A DNA stretch of 64,000 nt from Escherichia coli (GTDB lineage: Bacteria > Pseudomonadota > Gammaproteobacteria > Enterobacterales > Enterobacteriaceae). The position numbers and the translations under genes are program-made. The notes beneath the pieces were generated by a model that saw nothing but the letters and a program-made list of their open reading frames with translations, had not been told where the DNA came from and searched no databases. This document shows positions 24,880-33,839 of this stretch, in pieces (the first letter of the stretch is position 1; each line of letters begins with the position of its first letter). Location: assembly GCF_003018115.1 (NCBI RefSeq), contig NZ_CP027457.1; one strand, 5' to 3'.

Positions 24880-25630
24880 AATCATCATTCATGTATCAGG
24901 AAGAGTTAAGGGTACAAGGGGTACTCGATGGCGGTCTATATTTCATGACTAACGCCATTTAAAGGAAGAAGTGCGGTGGGTGGTTTCGAATGAGGGCTGG
25001 TGTTTTGGTACGTGGCACGCCACTGCAATGTATTTATCCATCAGTACTCATTCAAAAGTACCTGGAAAAAATGCCCGCTATGCCAAGCGGGCAAATTGCT
25101 TACATGTGGAATTAAGTAATTAACGATAAAGCCAGAGTATTATCATTTATTATACCCATTCATTTAATCAGGTTAATTACTCAAATCACTGAACTATTCT
25201 CTGTTCGCTCACTGATGATGAGTGAGTACCACAACCAATGTATGTAGAACAATGCCGTAGAGTAAGGATGAAATGTCTCTGCCACGCCTTAAACATCTAC
25301 TACTGACTAGAACACCCGCCGCAGGTAGATGAGTTTTGTGAGCGTTACAGGAGCATGGCTATGCTCATTAATCAACGCTATTTAGATATAAATTTCTAAC
25401 ACTCGAAAAACGATTTTCACTAATAAATTATAACGGGTGGTTTTTATCATACAGCGAAATAACCTTTTGTTTATTAAATTTAACATTCCTGTGCTAATTT
25501 AATTAAAAGTTCCATGCGTAGCAAGTGAAGCAGTTAATGTCAGCAATTGTCTCAAATGAGCGATTTTTTATAGTGACAAACAATAATAACATTAAAAATA
25601 GCCATGTAGACATTAACTGAGGAATAGAAA

Positions 25631-26980
25631 ATGTTAATTAATAAAAGCAACGGATTTAACGCTAGCGCAGTTTGGGGTAGTGGAAGTTATAATGAAAATA
25701 GATCTTCTAAACACATGGAGCTACTAGCTCATAGTATTGTAAAATTAATTTGTAAGGAAGCTGCATCAGAGACGTATCGCGGTGCTCTTGAAGTTTTACA
25801 AAAAATAATGTCTGAATGTATATATCATGAAGGCAACGCCTTTGTCATTATGGGAGCTGGAGAACAATTAAAACGTATTAAATATGATGTTGATGAAAAT
25901 AACTTAAAGGTATTCAATGTACACTTTGATAATAATGAAGCGTTAGTTACTGATGGTGAGCCTGACGTAGTATGTTTAAGCAAGCAGGTCTGGGAAAATC
26001 TTCTCATTAAACTAAAGCTGGAGAACAAAGAAAATACGGCTTCTGAAGTTCATGAATCAGCGAATAAAGGTGAGGTTGAGCAATTAGTTGAATGCTCTAA
26101 GAGAAATGAACAGACCCTTTTCGATAATATAAGAAAAAGTGATTTTCATGTTGGTTCACTTAAGCCAGGTAGTATGAATAGTGTTATTTTAGAAATGCCA
26201 CCAAATGTCTGTATGGAACCACGTAATTCATATGAAAACAAAATAGATGAGGTTTCATCTTTGTCAGAGCCAAAGGAACACACCATAGATATTCAAGAAA
26301 AAACAGATGCGTTTGTGAAGAAGTTCAAGGGGGTATTATTTGATAAAAATACAAGGTCTTCAGAGCTTCTGTTTAATTTTTATGAATGTTGCTATGTGTT
26401 TTTACCAAGAGCGCAGCCTCAGGATAAAATCGAAAGCTATAATTCAGCACTGCAAGCTTTTTCCATCTTTTGTTCATCTACGTTGACACATAATAATATA
26501 GGCTTTGATTTCAAGTTATTTCCAGAAGTCAAGCTGTCTGGAGAACATCTTGAAACGGTATTCAAATACAAAAATGGCGATGATGTCCGGGAGATAGCCA
26601 AAATTAACATTACTCTCCAAAAAGAAGAGGGTGGCTTATATAATCTACGTGGATTGGATTTTAAGGGATGCTTCTTTTCTGGACAGAACTTCAGTAACTA
26701 TGATATTCAATATGTGAACTGGGGAACGTCATTGTTTGATGTTGATACTCCGTGTATTTTTAATACGCCTGCTAACCATGAGAGTTATGAAAAATCATTA
26801 AAACCTGTAAGCGAAAACGGTTTAAATGGAGTCTTATCTGATCGTAATAAAAAAATAAAAATGATCACGGGTGTGGCACCATTCGATGATATTTTATTTA
26901 TGGATGATGACTTTGATGATAACTCCCCTGAGGATGCTCCCATTGAGAATAGTCCTGTTGTGAATAGTCCCCTTGTATGA
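25631..26980 (+). CDS. Uncharacterized AT-rich 449-aa protein (ypjC-like) with C-terminal pentapeptide-like repeats
   Basis: Long ORF with RBS gaggaa upstream; residues GLDFKGCFFSGQNFSNYDIQYVNWGTSLFD fit a pentapeptide-repeat pattern; position between tRNA-Ile and the pin remnant. Confidence 0.5.
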   Translation: MLINKSNGFNASAVWGSGSYNENRSSKHMELLAHSIVKLICKEAASETYRGALEVLQKIMSECIYHEGNAFVIMGAGEQLKRIKYDVDENNLKVFNVHFDNNEALVTDGEPDVVCLSKQVWENLLIKLKLENKENTASEVHESANKGEVEQLVECSKRNEQTLFDNIRKSDFHVGSLKPGSMNSVILEMPPNVCMEPRNSYENKIDEVSSLSEPKEHTIDIQEKTDAFVKKFKGVLFDKNTRSSELLFNFYECCYVFLPRAQPQDKIESYNSALQAFSIFCSSTLTHNNIGFDFKLFPEVKLSGEHLETVFKYKNGDDVREIAKINITLQKEEGGLYNLRGLDFKGCFFSGQNFSNYDIQYVNWGTSLFDVDTPCIFNTPANHESYEKSLKPVSENGLNGVLSDRNKKIKMITGVAPFDDILFMDDDFDDNSPEDAPIENSPVVNSPLV

Positions 26981-27299
26981 AGTTCTAAAAGTAGTTTTCA
27001 ATGATAAATAAATGGCTATTTTTACGAAGAGATAATAACGTAGATTTAAACAATATGTATTATTGATTGAGTAAATGGGATTATTCTTCACACTACATCC
27101 ATTTTAGTGTCACTACCAAAGAAAAAGGGGCTACGTTTTCATGTAACCCCTTGATTTATTTGGTGGGCTGGCAGTGACTGAATTGGTGCTGTAATTGGTT
27201 GAAATATTTCATCTAATGTCTGGTTCAACTTTCCTTAGCTGCCTGAAAGTTTTTTGATCTTACCCAGCAATAACAGCGTTACGGTGCACCACGCCTGAC

Positions 27300-27525
27300 T
27301 GAAGAACTGCGTGCTCAGGGTTACCACTTCAACGTAAAACTGTGGCAGGAGGTCCGGTCTGAAAAAACTGCACAGGACATCATCGGCAGGGAACGCACTG
27401 GTAGTCTGTAAACTGAACCGACTGGGGCGCAGTATGTGGCATCTTGTCGTGCTGTTGGAGGAGCTGTGCGAACGTGGTATTAACTTTCGTGCTCTGGCCC
27501 AATCTATATTTGCCCAACAATGGGG
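27300..27525 (+). pseudogene. pinH: Remnant of a Pin/Hin/Gin-family DNA invertase (pinH-like fragment)
   Basis: Plus-strand translation ...[48 protein letters not shown] aligns with the central part of the intact invertase at 58439..59005 (LSAGDTLVVWKLDRLGRSMQHLVTLIEELRQRGVNFRSL); no N-terminal catalytic Ser region. Confidence 0.65.
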
Positions 27526-27906
27526 GGACGGAAGCTGTAAAAGTAAAATAATCTGCGATCTCAGATTTATTGAGTGATTTTTATGTGAGCAGAAGATATT
27601 CATCAGAAACGATTATGTAAATCATTTTATTTTGCCGACTGCCTGATTGTCGAAAGAAAAGAATACGCCCGTGTTTCCTGAATAGATTGACTTTTTTATC
27701 CAACCACACTTCAGCGCACTGCGTTTAAAAAATGCCTCATTCTTATGCGGAATATCATCATTTCATCATGATGTCTTTGATGAGCGGTGAACACAATACA
27801 CTTGCGCTGTCTCTTCAGGATGAATCCCCTGGTCTGGTGCCTGTGGGCTGATGTTGCAGCAAAGCTAAGGTCGCTTAAACGCTACTCAGTATTCACTTTT
27901 CAGAGG

Positions 27907-30900
27907 ATGAAATTTATGAACAGGACCAGTCCCCATTATTGTCGCCGCTCAGTACTTTCCTTATTGATATCTGCCCTGATATATGCCCCGCCCGGGATGG
28001 CGGCCTTTACTACTAATGTTATTGGTGTGGTAAACGATGAGACTGTAGATGGTGTCCAAAAAGTAGATGAACGAGGTACAACAAATAACACTCATATTAT
28101 CAACCATGGCCAGCAGAATGTTGAAGGCGGGGTATCCAATGGAAGTATTATTGAATCGGGTGGATATCAAGATGTAGGAAGGCATAATAATTTTGTGGGG
28201 CAGGCTAATAATACAACCATTAACGGGGGCAGACAGTCAATTCATGACGGGGGTATTTCCACAGGTACGACAATCGAGAGTGGCAATCAGGACGTTTATA
28301 CAGGTGGTATCAGCAATGGAACGACAATTAAGGGTGGTAATTCACACATAAGTGGGGGGACTGCGAATGGAACAATCATTGATGGTGGCAGCCAACGAGT
28401 AACAACTCAGGGGCATGTCGACAGTACAACGATAAATAAGTCTGGCTCTCAGGACATCACGCAAGGAAGTCTGGCAACGAACACAACCATAAATGGTGGT
28501 CGACAGTATGTTGAACAGAGCACAGTAGAAACAACAACCATTAAAAATGGCGGTGAGCAAAGAGTATATGAGAGCCGTGCGCTGGACACGACGATTGAAG
28601 GCGGAACTCAGTCTCTGAATAGTAAGTCAACGGCAAAAAATACGCAGATCTATTCTGGTGGCACGCAAATTGTTGATAACACCAGCACCTCGGATGTTAT
28701 TGAAGTTTATTCCGGTGGCGTGCTTGATGTTAGTGGTGGTACGGCAACAAATGTTACCCAGCACGATGGTGCAATTTTAAAAACAAACACTAACGGTACG
28801 ACGGTGAACGGTACGAATAGTGAAGGTGCATTCTCCATCCACAATCACGTGGCAGACAATGTGTTGCTGGAAAACGGTGGTCATTTAGACATAAACGCAT
28901 ATGGTTCGGCAAACAAGACGATTATCAAAGATAAAGGAACAATGTCAGTTTTAACCAATGCTAAAGCTGATGCGACCCGAATAGATAATGGCGGGGTTAT
29001 GGATGTTGCCGGAAACGCGACAAATACCATAATTAATGGTGGCACACAGAATATTAATAATTATGGCATAGCCACAGGCACTAATATCAACAGCGGAACG
29101 CAAAATATCAAAAGCGGCGGGAAAGCTGACACAACAATTATATCCTCCGGGAGCCGGCAGGTTGTTGAGAAAGATGGTACGGCAATTGGCAGCAATATTA
29201 GCGCCGGAGGCTCACTGATTGTCTATACCGGCGGTATTGCACATGGGGTTAACCAGGAGACGGGCAGTGCTTTAGTTGCCAACACGGGTGCAGGGACTGA
29301 TATCGAAGGATACAACAAGCTCTCTCACTTCACTATTACCGGAGGGGAGGCTAATTATGTTGTGCTGGAAAATACCGGCGAACTGACGGTAGTGGCTAAA
29401 ACCTCGGCGAAAAATACTACCATTGATGCTGGCGGTAAGCTGATTGTCCAGAAGGAGGCTAAAACAGATAGCACCAGACTTAATAATGGCGGCGTTCTGG
29501 AGGTTCAGGACGGTGGTGAGGCTAAGCATGTTGAGCAACAATCCGGCGGCGCATTAATTGCTTCCACGACCTCCGGAACACTTATCGAAGGAACCAACAG
29601 TTATGGTGATGCTTTCTACATCAGGAATTCAGAAGCTAAAAATGTAGTGCTGGAAAACGCTGGCTCATTAACAGTCGTCACTGGTTCCCGGGCAGTTGAC
29701 ACGATTATTAATGCCAACGGCAAAATGGATGTTTATGGAAAAGATGTTGGCACTGTACTCAATAGTGCTGGCACCCAAACAATATATGCCAGTGCCACTT
29801 CTGATAAAGCAAATATCAAAGGTGGCAAGCAAACGGTATATGGTTTAGCCACTGAAGCAAATATCGAAAGTGGTGAACAAATTGTTGATGGCGGGTCAAC
29901 AGAGAAAACACACATCAATGGTGGCACGCAAACCGTTCAGAATTATGGTAAGGCAATCAATACCGATATCGTCTCTGGCCTACAACAAATTATGGCAAAC
30001 GGGACAGCGGAAGGTTCCATTATTAATGGGGGTTCACAGGTAGTTAATGAGGGCGGTCTGGCTGAAAACTCGGTGCTTAATGACGGCGGCACACTCGATG
30101 TGCGGGAGAAAGGCAGCGCAACGGGGATACAGCAGAGTAGCCAGGGCGCTTTGGTTGCAACCACCAGGGCGACGCGGGTCACAGGAACACGCGCGGATGG
30201 CGTCGCGTTCAGCATCGAGCAGGGTGCGGCGAACAATATCCTGCTGGCAAATGGCGGCGTGTTAACCGTGGAGTCAGACACCACTTCCGCCAAAACACAG
30301 GTCAATACGGGCGGACGGGAGATCGTCAAAACAAAAGCCACTGCGACAGGCACGACGCTCACCGGCGGTGAACAAATTGTCGAGGGTGTGGCGAATGAGA
30401 CAACAATTAACGACGGCGGAATACAAACAGTTTCAGCTAACGGAGAGGCAATAAAAACAAAGATCAATGAAGGCGGAACGCTGACAGTCAACGATAATGG
30501 CAAAGCGACAGATATCGTCCAGAACAGCGGTGCCGCTCTCCAGACGAGCACGGCTGACGGTATTGAAATCAGCGGTACTCACCAGTACGGCACTTTTTCC
30601 ATTTCCGGCAATTTAGCGACCAATATGTTGCTGGAAAATGGCGGTAATTTATTGGTATTAGCAGGTACCGAAGCTCGCGACTCCACGGTTGGCAAGGGTG
30701 GGGCAATGCAAAACCTGGGTCAGGACTCCGCCACAAAGGTTAACTCTGGTGGGCAATATACCCTTGGGCGGTCAAAAGATGAGTTTCAGGCTCTGGCCCG
30801 GGCAGAAGATCTCCAGGTCGCTGGCGGGACGGCAATCGTCTACGCAGGTACGCTGGCGGATGCATCGGTCAGTGGCGCGACAGGAAGCCTGTCGTTAATG

Positions 30901-32502
30901 ACGCCACGGGATAATGTTACGCCAGTTAAACTCGAAGGGGCGGTCCGGATTACCGATAGCGCGACATTGACTCTGGGAAATGGCGTCGATACAACGCTTG
31001 CCGACCTGACGGCTGCCAGCCGGGGCAGTGTCTGGCTTAACAGCAATAATTCCTGTGCAGGCACCAGCAACTGCGAGTATAGAGTAAACAGTTTGCTACT
31101 TAACGACGGTAATGTTTATTTATCAGCACAAACAGCAGCGCCTGCCACAACTAACGGTATCTACAATACGCTGACAACCAATGAACTTTCCGGTAGCGGT
31201 AATTTCTACCTGCATACCAACGTTGCAGGCTCCCGGGGCGATCAACTGGTCGTCAACTACAACGCCACTGGTAATTTTAAAATCTTTGTTCAGGATACCG
31301 GCGTCAGCCCACAGTCTGACGACGCGATGACGCTGGTGAAAACAGGGGGAGGGGATGCTTCGTTTACGCTGGGCAATACCGGCGGTTTCGTTGATCTTGG
31401 GACCTATGAGTATGTCCTGAAAAGCGACGGCAACAGCAACTGGAACCTGACCAATGATGTCAAACCCAACCCGGACCCCAACCCAAATCCAAATCCGAAG
31501 CCAGACCCAAAACCCGATCCAACGCCAGACCCAAATCCAAAACCAGACCCGACTCCCGAGCCAACGCCGACACCCGTTCCGGAGAAACGCATCACGCCTT
31601 CTACCGCAGCCGTACTCAATATGGCAGCAACATTACCGTTGGTATTTGATGCTGAGCTAAACAGTATTCGCGAGCGGTTGAACATAATGAAAGCGAGTCC
31701 ACACAACAATAATGTCTGGGGGGCGACGTATAACACCCGTAATAATGTCACCACCGATGCGGGTGCCGGGTTTGAGCAGACGCTGACAGGAATGACAGTG
31801 GGGATCGACAGCCGTAATGATATTCCTGAAGGAATTGCCACGCTGGGCGCTTTTATTGGTTATTCCCATTCACATATCGGTTTTGATCGCGGAGGACATG
31901 GCAGTGTGGGCAGTTATTCTCTGGGCGGCTATGCCAGTTGGGAACATGAAAGTGGTTTCTATCTGGACGGTGTCGTGAAGCTGAACCGTTTTGAAAGTAA
32001 CGTAGCCGGTAAAATGAGCAGCGGTGGAGCCGCCAATGGCAGTTACCACAGCAACGGGCTGGGCGGTCACATTGAAACCGGGATGCGATTTACCGATGGT
32101 AACTGGAACCTGACGCCGTATGCATCGTTAACGGGGTTCACCGCTGATAACCCTGAATATCATTTATCCAATGGCATGGAATCGAAATCAGTCGATACCC
32201 GCAGTATATATCGTGAACTGGGTGCAACGCTGAGTTACAACATGCGTCTGGGGAACGGTATGGAAGTTGAGCCGTGGCTGAAGGCGGCTGTGCGCAAAGA
32301 ATTTGTCGATGATAACCGGGTGAAGGTGAATAATGACGGTAATTTCGTCAATGATTTGTCGGGCAGACGTGGAATATACCAGGCAGGTATTAAAGCCTCA
32401 TTCAGCAGTACGTTAAGCGGGCATCTCGGGGTGGGGTATAGCAACGGTGCCGATGTGGAATCCCCGTGGAACGCGGTGGCTGGTGTGAACTGGTCGTTCT
32501 GA
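27907..32502 (+). CDS. ypjA: AIDA/YpjA-type autotransporter adhesin
   Basis: Start MKFMNRTSPHYCRRSVLSLLISALIYAPPGMAA (signal peptide); glycine/threonine-rich repetitive passenger; proline-rich PNPDPNPNPNPKPDPKPDP linker; C-terminal beta-barrel ending ...AVAGVNWSF. Confidence 0.85.
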   Translation: MKFMNRTSPHYCRRSVLSLLISALIYAPPGMAAFTTNVIGVVNDETVDGVQKVDERGTTNNTHIINHGQQNVEGGVSNGSIIESGGYQDVGRHNNFVGQANNTTINGGRQSIHDGGISTGTTIESGNQDVYTGGISNGTTIKGGNSHISGGTANGTIIDGGSQRVTTQGHVDSTTINKSGSQDITQGSLATNTTINGGRQYVEQSTVETTTIKNGGEQRVYESRALDTTIEGGTQSLNSKSTAKNTQIYSGGTQIVDNTSTSDVIEVYSGGVLDVSGGTATNVTQHDGAILKTNTNGTTVNGTNSEGAFSIHNHVADNVLLENGGHLDINAYGSANKTIIKDKGTMSVLTNAKADATRIDNGGVMDVAGNATNTIINGGTQNINNYGIATGTNINSGTQNIKSGGKADTTIISSGSRQVVEKDGTAIGSNISAGGSLIVYTGGIAHGVNQETGSALVANTGAGTDIEGYNKLSHFTITGGEANYVVLENTGELTVVAKTSAKNTTIDAGGKLIVQKEAKTDSTRLNNGGVLEVQDGGEAKHVEQQSGGALIASTTSGTLIEGTNSYGDAFYIRNSEAKNVVLENAGSLTVVTGSRAVDTIINANGKMDVYGKDVGTVLNSAGTQTIYASATSDKANIKGGKQTVYGLATEANIESGEQIVDGGSTEKTHINGGTQTVQNYGKAINTDIVSGLQQIMANGTAEGSIINGGSQVVNEGGLAENSVLNDGGTLDVREKGSATGIQQSSQGALVATTRATRVTGTRADGVAFSIEQGAANNILLANGGVLTVESDTTSAKTQVNTGGREIVKTKATATGTTLTGGEQIVEGVANETTINDGGIQTVSANGEAIKTKINEGGTLTVNDNGKATDIVQNSGAALQTSTADGIEISGTHQYGTFSISGNLATNMLLENGGNLLVLAGTEARDSTVGKGGAMQNLGQDSATKVNSGGQYTLGRSKDEFQALARAEDLQVAGGTAIVYAGTLADASVSGATGSLSLMTPRDNVTPVKLEGAVRITDSATLTLGNGVDTTLADLTAASRGSVWLNSNNSCAGTSNCEYRVNSLLLNDGNVYLSAQTAAPATTNGIYNTLTTNELSGSGNFYLHTNVAGSRGDQLVVNYNATGNFKIFVQDTGVSPQSDDAMTLVKTGGGDASFTLGNTGGFVDLGTYEYVLKSDGNSNWNLTNDVKPNPDPNPNPNPKPDPKPDPTPDPNPKPDPTPEPTPTPVPEKRITPSTAAVLNMAATLPLVFDAELNSIRERLNIMKASPHNNNVWGATYNTRNNVTTDAGAGFEQTLTGMTVGIDSRNDIPEGIATLGAFIGYSHSHIGFDRGGHGSVGSYSLGGYASWEHESGFYLDGVVKLNRFESNVAGKMSSGGAANGSYHSNGLGGHIETGMRFTDGNWNLTPYASLTGFTADNPEYHLSNGMESKSVDTRSIYRELGATLSYNMRLGNGMEVEPWLKAAVRKEFVDDNRVKVNNDGNFVNDLSGRRGIYQAGIKASFSSTLSGHLGVGYSNGADVESPWNAVAGVNWSF

Positions 32503-32512
32503 CCATCAACGA

Positions 32513-32536: not shown

Positions 32537-32663
32537 ATGTCGCCAGGAGCCGCGGCTCCTTTGCGTATCCTTTTTTGTCTCCTCACCGTCTGGTCGGTGT
32601 CCTGCTGAGACTGCTAACTTCCTGTTTTTGTTGGTGTTGTCCTTACACCGTCCAATCATGATT

Positions 32664-32708
32664 GGTGGAGCTGGCGGGAGTTGAACCCGCGTCCGAAATT
32701 CCTACATA
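32664..32708 (-). repeat. tmRNA (ssrA) 3'-end-like sequence: prophage att core copy
   Basis: Minus strand reads gtaggaatttcggacgcgggttcaactcccgccagctccacca, i.e. the acceptor/T-arm end of tmRNA with CCA; no upstream tmRNA body, so this is a partial duplicate. Confidence 0.7.
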
Positions 32709-32792
32709 CCATTTTCACTATAATAAAAACATTAACTTGCGTTTAAAATCAGTAAGTTAGTATTATCTTGTGTTTGCTCGTTTTACTCATTT

Positions 32793-33839
32793 TTAATGCT
32801 CTGTCGCCAATCTGTCGCCATTGTAGGTCAACGAAGGTTGAGCCTTCCCTTTGTTTGTTATAATTTCATCAAAGATAGCTGGATTATTATCTTTCAGTAA
32901 TCTTGCTAGTATAATGATTTGCCCAGACGAGCCATCATCCTTGAATGAAAGGAAATTATCGGTAATATCAAGAATATCAATGGTAAATTTGAAGTAAGTT
33001 TCAATTGTATCGCCAAGCTCAATGCTGGACATGAAGTTAGTAACCATTTCATATCCATCAAAGTATAAAGTTGCATGTTCATTTAACTCCATTGGAGTTA
33101 GGCAAAGCATTCGATTAAGTTCGGATAAGTGTTTTTCTATTGAATGAAGAGATTGCATTTGACGGATTAAAACTTCGTCAAACTGAGAGCCATGATTAGA
33201 TGAATGTATCTTCTCTAGGTTTTTTAGTATATCAACCCAGTGATTATTCACTTCACGTATGTATTCTTTATCTGTATTTTTAGGCCGTCCCTTCTCTGGT
33301 GAGCTATTTATGAAAATATATCTATATAGATGTATTGGGTAGTTAATTTTATAACTTATCTCTTTAGTACCATAATGACGTTCGCGTTTAATGGTTTTGT
33401 TAGGTAAATTGGTGAAATAATCAGTAACGAACTTTAGATGGCTATAGTAGCTATCAGATAGATTCTTTTGCTTGGTTTCCTCAATTTGTCGGTTTGTTTG
33501 AACTGTGCGGTGTATGTTTGCTACGACAGCAACAAATGGTATGGACAAAGAAAGTAAGGCGATAGGAAGCTTGCTAATTGCAATGAAATTATTAAAGCCC
33601 TCACTATCAAATTGAGGGGAATGTCCAAGCCAGGAAAATATACCAAAGTATATCGCTGAAAATACAGGAATCCTAAGTGATTGTTTAAATAAGTATTGAC
33701 TTGTTAATGGCCTTTCATCCATGTTAAAGCCTTTTTTTGATACGCATAGATATAATTCAAGGCATATATATAAAAAATATATTATGATAAGTAAGTACGA
33801 TATCCATGGGTATTGTTGGATATAGTTATTAACAAACAC
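32793..33839 (-). CDS. Prophage cargo: uncharacterized membrane-anchored protein (348 aa)
   Basis: Very AT-rich ORF between att core and integrase; N-terminal hydrophobic helices (YLLIIIYFLYICLELYL, IPVFSAIYFGIFSWLG, LPIALLSLSIPFVAVVANI) followed by a soluble domain; start overlaps the integrase stop. Confidence 0.6.
   Translation of the reverse strand: MFVNNYIQQYPWISYLLIIIYFLYICLELYLCVSKKGFNMDERPLTSQYLFKQSLRIPVFSAIYFGIFSWLGHSPQFDSEGFNNFIAISKLPIALLSLSIPFVAVVANIHRTVQTNRQIEETKQKNLSDSYYSHLKFVTDYFTNLPNKTIKRERHYGTKEISYKINYPIHLYRYIFINSSPEKGRPKNTDKEYIREVNNHWVDILKNLEKIHSSNHGSQFDEVLIRQMQSLHSIEKHLSELNRMLCLTPMELNEHATLYFDGYEMVTNFMSSIELGDTIETYFKFTIDILDITDNFLSFKDDGSSGQIIILARLLKDNNPAIFDEIITNKGKAQPSLTYNGDRLATEH

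Follow-up and report, generated by a model that had tools for sequence, protein, structure and literature searches.

Pentapeptide-repeat proteins of the Pfam family PF00805 include the DNA mimics Qnr and MfpA, and the Salmonella effectors PipB and PipB2 are pentapeptide-repeat proteins as well. Among the integrative elements of Escherichia coli that are anchored at tRNA or transfer-messenger RNA (tmRNA) genes are CP4-57 and P2-like prophages at the tmRNA gene ssrA, and the tRNA gene ileY is occupied by integrative elements in other strains (PMC8193136). An initial annotation of the E. coli DNA analysed here, a 64-kb stretch of contig NZ_CP027457.1 (hereafter the window), referred to both classes when it proposed that a protein of 449 amino acids (aa) encoded downstream of a tRNA-Ile gene has pentapeptide-like repeats and belongs to a decayed integrative element at the tRNA. 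The protein is YpjCB, and we consider it quite probable that the ileY-ypjCB segment is a known accessory segment with an intact YpjCB orphan, whose motif is pentapeptide-like only, and that ileY lies within a larger variable module. Overall, the foreign-looking variable DNA and the periodicity of the initial annotation were retained, whereas the pentapeptide-repeat protein and the tRNA-integrated element were not.

The ypjCB gene, its distribution and its alleles

The 449-aa open reading frame (ORF) proposed downstream of the spacer was recovered at positions 25631-26980 (plus strand) and corresponds to ypjCB. Its product matched the NCBIfam model NF050179 ('YpjCB family protein') over residues 1-449 with 950.3 bits against a cut-off of 650, and the Pfam families DUF5507 on residues 1-160 (E = 5e-88) and DUF5508 on residues 195-449 (E = 1e-164). 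The interval 24700-27300 is 100% identical to E. coli F9792, in which the coding sequence is annotated as ypjCB (WP_001613640.1) and the gene order reads gabDTP, lhgO, glaH, ygaQ (pseudogene), ileY, ypjCB, recombinase fragment, ypjA. The order gab/glaH, ygaQ, ileY, ypjCB, pinH, ypjA agrees with the layout of MG1655, and the placement of ypjCB between ileY and pinH/ypjA was found in F9792, a K-12 derivative, MG1655 and six other strains. K-12 carries a stop at codon 161, and it is because of this nonsense codon that the gene is annotated there as two pieces, ypjC (b2650) and ypjB (b2649).

At least 80% of the interval 24700-27300 is present in about 3,017 of 5,426 complete E. coli genomes. Matches to YpjCB numbered in the hundreds in two word-indexed searches over 5.8 billion proteins, and the named homologues all come from E. 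coli or Shigella, bar one unclassified Enterobacteriaceae isolate. A phmmer search of 1.84 billion cluster representatives yielded 45 matches, which consisted of YpjCB clusters, fragments and one PA14-repeat protein. A profile search of PDB sequences gave nothing relevant to YpjCB, the PADLOC defence models had no match at the locus, and the sole match in PHROGs was an unannotated family equal to YpjCB itself. Judged by these sequence searches, YpjCB is an Escherichia-restricted orphan gene of a known accessory locus; both locus and protein family are already catalogued. The 2.8-kb contig DEQI01000374.1, assigned to the metagenome-assembled genome (MAG) 'Planococcaceae bacterium UBA3370', is 95% identical over its whole length to window positions 24834-27633, and this identity makes it almost certain that E. 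coli DNA contaminates this Firmicutes MAG.

Alleles of YpjCB measure 449, 457, 484 and 491/492 aa and differ at up to 22% of residues (down to 78% identity), and further by a mid-protein indel of 35 aa and a C-terminal extension of 8 aa; taken together, they look mosaic. The ratio of non-synonymous to synonymous substitution rates (dN/dS), determined by the Nei-Gojobori method on five intact alleles, was 0.6-0.9 for the whole gene, 0.4-0.6 for the N-terminal domain (residues 29-130), about 1 for the linker (residues 131-244) and 0.5-0.7 for the C-terminal domain (residues 245-420). The best-conserved part of the protein is the segment with pentapeptide-like periodicity (residues 335-372), with a dN/dS of 0.1-0.2, while the first 28 residues reach values of 3-9, corresponding to about 18 non-synonymous changes versus about 1 synonymous change. 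These codons lie at 25631-25714 of the window, and the changes were counted between allele groups. The excess of non-synonymous change could reflect diversifying selection or a disordered N-terminus that is constrained in its composition. The gene was found disrupted in three of the eight genomes sampled, and the overall pattern is that of an accessory gene that is often disrupted and under weak constraint, apart from a single small core under strong constraint.

The pentapeptide-like segment of YpjCB

The constrained core coincides with the segment on which the repeat assignment had been based. Residues 337-371 (26639-26743, plus strand) form seven in-register pentads (YNLRG, LDFKG, CFFSG, QNFSN, YDIQY, VNWGT and SLFDV), with a hydrophobic centre in all seven and D or N just before the centre in five of the seven. 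Only 1 of 20,000 shuffles of YpjCB equalled this pattern, so that the proposed periodicity was confirmed over about 35 residues.

The pentads raise the possibility that YpjCB is a genuine pentapeptide-repeat protein, with a C-terminal right-handed quadrilateral beta-helix and a role as DNA mimic or secreted effector. Beyond the shuffle test and the strong purifying selection on the stretch, this is favoured by sub-threshold matches to PF00805 and PF13576 on exactly the pentad stretch, and by short beta-bridges about five residues apart in AlphaFold2 models (predicted local distance difference test, pLDDT, about 55-77). However, the hidden Markov model search for the pentapeptide-repeat family, which the initial annotation had itself proposed, gave no match at the curated threshold: PF00805 scored 13.5 bits versus a cut-off of 20.2, in a 19-residue match seen only on scanning a 115-aa fragment, and it was not listed among the Pfam matches of the whole protein at E <= 1. 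The longest in-register run, seven pentads, amounts to fewer than two coils and stays below the eight or more that two complete four-sided coils require. The exhaustive phmmer matches include no pentapeptide-repeat protein, and an hhalign comparison of the C-terminal alignment with a Qnr-like sequence, an unvalidated comparator and hence a weak control, covered 23 columns at 6% probability.

Structure prediction was performed with AlphaFold2 from a shallow alignment and reached a mean pLDDT of 40 for the full-length protein and 50 for residues 240-425. The prediction is best for residues 294-359 (pLDDT about 58-77), which form a three-stranded meander; beyond it, the beta-bridges recur roughly every five residues over residues 331-377. 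A Foldseek search of these low-confidence models against the PDB gave nothing at E <= 0.001, with TM-scores of 0.23 or less. What the initial annotation had named as refuting a pentapeptide-repeat protein is essentially what was obtained, namely no hit at threshold and two AlphaFold2 models of low confidence. We conclude that the periodicity is real and conserved, while YpjCB stands outside the pentapeptide-repeat family by sequence criteria and is not a demonstrable member of it; membership in that family appears unlikely to us. For annotation practice, the result argues against listing this already catalogued E. coli orphan among the pentapeptide-repeat effectors.

A further explanation for the same segment came from the only phmmer match outside the YpjCB family among the 1.84 billion representatives, the four-PA14-repeat protein P0165 (E = 4.5e-4). 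According to this explanation, the periodic segment would derive from a PA14-like beta domain, a fold that binds carbohydrates or ligands, and residues 296-372 would match the final strands of one PA14 domain together with the opening strands of the domain after it. The Pfam DUF5508 model scores 36.4 bits on P0165, and hhalign aligned YpjCB with P0165 over 76 columns at 34% identity (E = 4.4e-4, probability 33%), a better match than that to the pentapeptide-repeat comparator. The alignment, however, runs from the end of one PA14 domain into the beginning of the adjoining one and thus represents a domain junction and no whole domain, and the PA14 model PF07691 itself matched neither the whole of YpjCB (E <= 1) nor the 115-aa fragment (E <= 10). 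Moreover, P0165 is a single protein among very many PA14 proteins, and the presence of four similar repeats in it inflates its score. Since only one protein of a very large family matches, PA14 is a weak rival, and we regard a PA14 origin of the segment as improbable.

Homology and fold searches yielded no functional assignment for YpjCB. With low confidence, we propose that it may be a non-enzymatic, protein- or ligand-binding accessory protein with residues 296-372 as its interaction module. In K-12, deletion of ypjC left the biofilm somewhat more colonised by pathogenic E. coli, ypjC was induced about two-fold on colonisation, and a mutant was unobtainable in strain 55989 (PMC3646849). A more specific proposal would be that YpjCB is an unrecognised, Escherichia-specific, exported and effector-like protein, silenced by H-NS/Hha and repeatedly lost where it is not needed. 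The variable Ser/Asn-rich N-terminus could then serve as a putative secretion signal, and the small conserved module could be a binding module of beta-solenoid-like or PA14-like type. An effector-like role would fit because the Ser/Asn-rich N-terminus evolves fast, the GC content is low and the protein ends in an acidic, aromatic C-terminal tail (FDDILFMDDDFDD); such a function seems improbable to us.

The spacer between ileY and ypjCB

The spacer extends over 751 bp from 24880 to 25630, and no annotated feature was present in it in the records examined, i.e. F9792, the K-12 derivative, MG1655 and the six other strains. An ORF scan revealed none of 60 aa or more, the longest measuring 50 aa. 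The overall GC content is 0.372, with 0.426 in the tRNA-proximal 250 bp and 0.344 in the distal 500 bp; the proposed AT-rich, non-coding spacer of 750 bp was therefore confirmed in length and lack of coding capacity, while its AT-richness is clear only in the distal two thirds. An Rfam scan of 24300-27900 at E <= 1 returned the tRNA only. The spacer had no match among phage records, and the three matches among plasmid records were all multi-megabase, chromosome-sized E. coli records.

Within the spacer, a block of 216 bp (24985-25200) is the best-conserved part of the locus. Pairwise diversity among eight aligned genomes was 0.013-0.026 at 25000-25199 versus 0.05-0.16 elsewhere, including ypjCB. 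All 3,094 of the 3,094 genomes that carry the block are at least 95% identical to the window in it, and 1,478 of them reach 99% or more; for a control of equal length (25285-25500), 967 genomes fell below 95%. A scan of 100,044 species-representative genomes with an exact pattern of the block gave one hit, the UBA3370 contig mentioned above. Thus, a non-coding block upstream of a highly polymorphic ypjCB is far better conserved than the gene itself. The block also contains a long imperfect hairpin on the plus strand, and folding of 24880-25110 gave z = -3.65.

Two promoter-like sites precede ypjCB on the plus strand. The distal one (25140-25168) has the arrangement TTATCA-17-TTTAAT, and a genomic SELEX (systematic evolution of ligands by exponential enrichment) study of RpoD lists the same hexamers, as TTATCA-18-TTTAAT, for the proposed ypjC promoter (PMC3946193). 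Both hexamers (25140-25145 and 25163-25168) are invariant in 15 of 15 genomes, with five polymorphic sites between them (25151-25161). The proximal site, TTGTCT-16-TATAGT at 25547-25574, was recognised by a consensus scan, and a Shine-Dalgarno-like GAGGA follows at 25619-25623, 8 nt before the ATG of ypjCB. Binding of H-NS and RpoD has been reported in the ypjC-ileY spacer, with H-NS also in the ileY-ygaQ spacer (PMC3946193), and binding of Hha near ileY and ypjC (PMC2408971).

The hairpin that had been noted in the spacer is present at 25072-25093 in the form TGCCCGC-TATGCCAA-GCGGGCA, with AAATTGCTT as its plus-strand tail. Read on the minus strand, it consists of 8 pairs, 6 of them G-C, and a 6-nt loop followed by TTTTTT, and together with this tail (25066-25093) it has the pattern of an intrinsic terminator; the terminator-like orientation is therefore opposite to that of the tRNA and ypjCB. 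A second terminator-like hairpin lies 145 bp after the ypjCB stop (27125-27152); it was scored on the minus strand, and its plus-strand tail is weak.

These features suggest how the segment may work. The spacer would act as an H-NS/Hha-bound control region of ypjCB, and the gene would be driven from both the distal and the proximal promoter. The convergent minus-strand terminator at 25066-25093 would, most plausibly, halt antisense transcription that arises in the AT-rich DNA short of ileY. More tentatively, YpjCB may be silenced by H-NS/Hha under laboratory conditions and be dispensable in many lineages.

Several observations weigh against the overall reading of an accessory segment with an intact orphan gene and a control region of this kind. 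The substitution C25076T, which occurs in about half of the sampled genomes including K-12, introduces an A.C mismatch and weakens the minus-strand stem. The 3' ends listed for K-12 by Term-seq under limited conditions include none at 27855xx, the counterpart of the hairpin in MG1655 (window 25066 being about 2785575 there, on the plus strand), those listed near ileY being only 2785762 and 2785734 on the minus strand (PMC7815308), and the terminator role is deduced from the pattern alone. The reading also gives no reason for the conservation of 24985-25135, upstream of the distal promoter. As to the protein, the modest biofilm-colonisation effect of the K-12 ypjC deletion is the only phenotype found (PMC3646849), and the low-confidence models leave room for a small beta-solenoid.

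The marked conservation of the block compared with its surroundings could also be explained if it encoded a product of its own, either a minus-strand small RNA (sRNA) of about 75 nt (from about 25142 to about 25066, where it would end at the terminator) or a plus-strand protein of 41 aa (24990-25115). For the sRNA, the U6-tailed terminator pattern is combined with a minus-strand TTAACC-16-TATAAT at 25176-25149, and an 81-nt minus-strand stretch folds better than its shuffles (z = -2.4). The 41-aa ORF, for its part, is intact in 15 of 15 genomes; its variable sites, 3 synonymous and 2 non-synonymous, are too few to inform, and the ORF is just the end of a 109-aa gene call that reads through the tRNA and is spurious. 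There is neither an Rfam match nor an annotation in NC_000913.3 for the sRNA, its -10 hexamer is polymorphic in about half of the genomes, C25076T puts the same A.C mismatch into its stem, and no 3' end at the site appears among those listed for K-12. On account of the polymorphic hexamer and stem and of the 3' ends listed, the sRNA was demoted, and a product encoded by the block strikes us as a doubtful explanation of its conservation. Gene-calling pipelines list the 41-aa and 50-aa spacer ORFs as 'hypothetical' only, and both were rejected as candidates, the 41-aa one as the tail of the spurious tRNA-crossing ORF.

ileY, the variable module and known integration systems

Comparison with HS1496, a genome without the locus, revealed that homology to the window stops at 21855 and restarts at 32512, directly after the ypjA stop, delimiting a strain-variable module of 10,656 bp (21856-32511). 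It contains a ygaQ-like gene, ileY, the spacer, ypjCB, the pinH remnant and ypjA/ehaD. In HS1496, 333 bp replace the module and ssrA follows about 0.7 kb after glaH; no tRNA lies between glaH and ssrA, and ileY is absent there along with the locus. In genomes without the region, homology to the window is lost at 21855, 2.9 kb to the left of the tRNA, and this position of the edge places ileY inside the module and not at its border. The module thus sits between glaH and the stretch just downstream of ssrA, and ileY is part of it, not its anchor. The GC content of the left 5.9 kb is 0.37 versus 0.54 in the gab/glaH flank. In outline, these data support the view that the DNA here varies between strains, is low in GC, holds the remains of a recombinase and has the appearance of horizontally acquired sequence.

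The tRNA-Ile gene proposed upstream of the spacer was verified as ileY at 24804-24879 (plus strand). ARAGORN detected it as the single tRNA in the window, with a CAT anticodon from which the program derived a Met label; the identical sequence is tRNA-Ile in RefSeq and ileY, tRNA-Ile(CAU), in MG1655. A consensus scan placed a promoter-like site, TAGATA-16-TATCAT, at 24568-24595 (plus strand), and the RpoD genomic SELEX study gives the same hexamers for ileY (PMC3946193). Position 24870 within ileY is G in the window and in F9792 and A in 14 other genomes examined; with the G, pair 6-67 of the acceptor stem becomes a U.G wobble instead of U-A.

Other strains have satellite-like or ter-carrying elements inserted between ileY and the spacer. 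In strain OkiPb01694, ileY is directly followed by the start of an element whose genes include those for a primase, an Icd-like protein, a capsid protein and a small terminase; isolate GENOMIC23-001 has a 48-nt copy of the tRNA 3' end adjoining the same spacer, on the spacer side of the element. The gene is thus a genuine attachment (att) site that is unoccupied in this window. Strains with elements at ileY still hold the spacer and ypjCB beyond the element, and this order of tRNA, element and spacer makes the spacer and ypjCB flank and not cargo. The OkiPb01694 element (13482-22484 of that record) is satellite-like and also has major capsid and head decoration genes, and ileY is annotated in this strain as a 71-nt tRNA.

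The recombinase remnant ('pin') of the initial annotation was likewise recovered, at about 27350-27508 (plus strand), where RefSeq annotates in F9792 and other strains a pinH fragment of a serine recombinase/invertase lacking both ends. It is located 370 bp downstream of ypjCB and 2.5 kb from the tRNA, and its positions 27356-27489 are 76% identical to 58568-58701, a part of a 203-aa ORF (58394-59005) that is probably an intact invertase of the downstream prophage. The pinH fragment is a relic of an invertase-type serine recombinase, not a tRNA-site integrase.

On these grounds, the proposal of a decayed integrative element at ileY, with ypjCB and the spacer as its cargo and pinH as its leftover recombinase, could be assessed. 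The low GC content, the recombinase fragment 370 bp downstream of ypjCB and the real integration at ileY in other strains speak for such an element. However, the direct repeat of the tRNA 3' end expected to delimit the islet is missing: a search with the 25-nt end (3 mismatches) and the 15-nt end (2 mismatches), together with a repeat-family check, found no second copy in the 64-kb window outside the tRNA itself. No integrase was found beside the tRNA, which is followed by 751 bp without an ORF of more than 50 aa, and pinH is of the invertase type. The module takes in ileY itself and 2.9 kb to its left, an empty site with the tRNA kept and the island gone was not found, the module-free HS1496 lacking the tRNA between glaH and ssrA too, and the ileY elements of other strains fall between the tRNA and the spacer. 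The proposal is largely refuted by these results, and we consider it very unlikely. The picture of the locus is thereby corrected: ileY does not anchor an islet but is an att site without an occupant, enclosed in a larger variable module beside ssrA.

Further genes of the module and its surroundings were assigned as follows. An intact ygaQ-like ORF of the alpha-amylase family (21992-24244, minus strand, 750 aa) shows weak matches to Pfam Alpha-amylase_C and Alpha-amylase. The gene has a stop at codon 413 in the near-identical F9792, and MG1655 ygaQ has three stops; judging from its uninterrupted frame, the ygaQ-like gene may be functional in this window. The right end of the module is formed by ypjA/ehaD (27916-32502, plus strand), an adhesin-like autotransporter according to Pfam (AIDA, Pertactin, Autotransporter) and RefSeq. 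It is followed by a partial ssrA 3' end (32663-32710, plus strand), an att repeat recognised by a 28-nt exact match and by alignment to the ssrA region of HS1496; the copy in the window amounts to 47 nt, and no tmRNA gene was called in the 64-kb window. Next comes an integrase ORF (32793-33839, minus strand) of a prophage whose closest matches carry P2-like functions, and the genes matching such functions in 32793-64000 include a repressor CI, a replication endonuclease and a Dam methylase. The window and F9792 part exactly at the att repeat, which means that they hold different elements at ssrA.

Compared with known systems, YpjCB shares with the pentapeptide-repeat proteins the motif x-[D/N]-[hydrophobic]-x-x over about 35 residues, but it has seven pentads only, a sub-threshold score and no such protein among its sequence relatives, and their beta-helix was not recovered by the low-confidence structure prediction or the fold search. 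To the PA14 domain (PF07691) it is weakly similar over 76 columns, including a G-x-[YF]-[YF]-x-x-Q-N-F-[ST]-N motif, yet the match is limited to the domain junction, and structural support was not found in prediction or fold search. With CP4-57 and the P2-like prophages at ssrA, the locus has in common its position in the same glaH-ssrA variable region, as the ssrA att repeat at 32663-32710 illustrates, and ileY is usable as an att site here as it is for the satellite-like or ter-carrying elements. Unlike the tRNA- and tmRNA-anchored elements of E. coli, the ileY-ypjCB segment has neither flanking att repeats nor an integrase, and it lies outside the elements that use the ssrA and ileY sites. 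K-12 YpjC/YpjB, in turn, represent the same gene at the same position, in locus DNA (24700-27300) that is about 95% identical between the window and K-12-type genomes; there, ypjC/ypjB are broken by a stop, whereas the ypjCB of this window is intact with its 449 aa.

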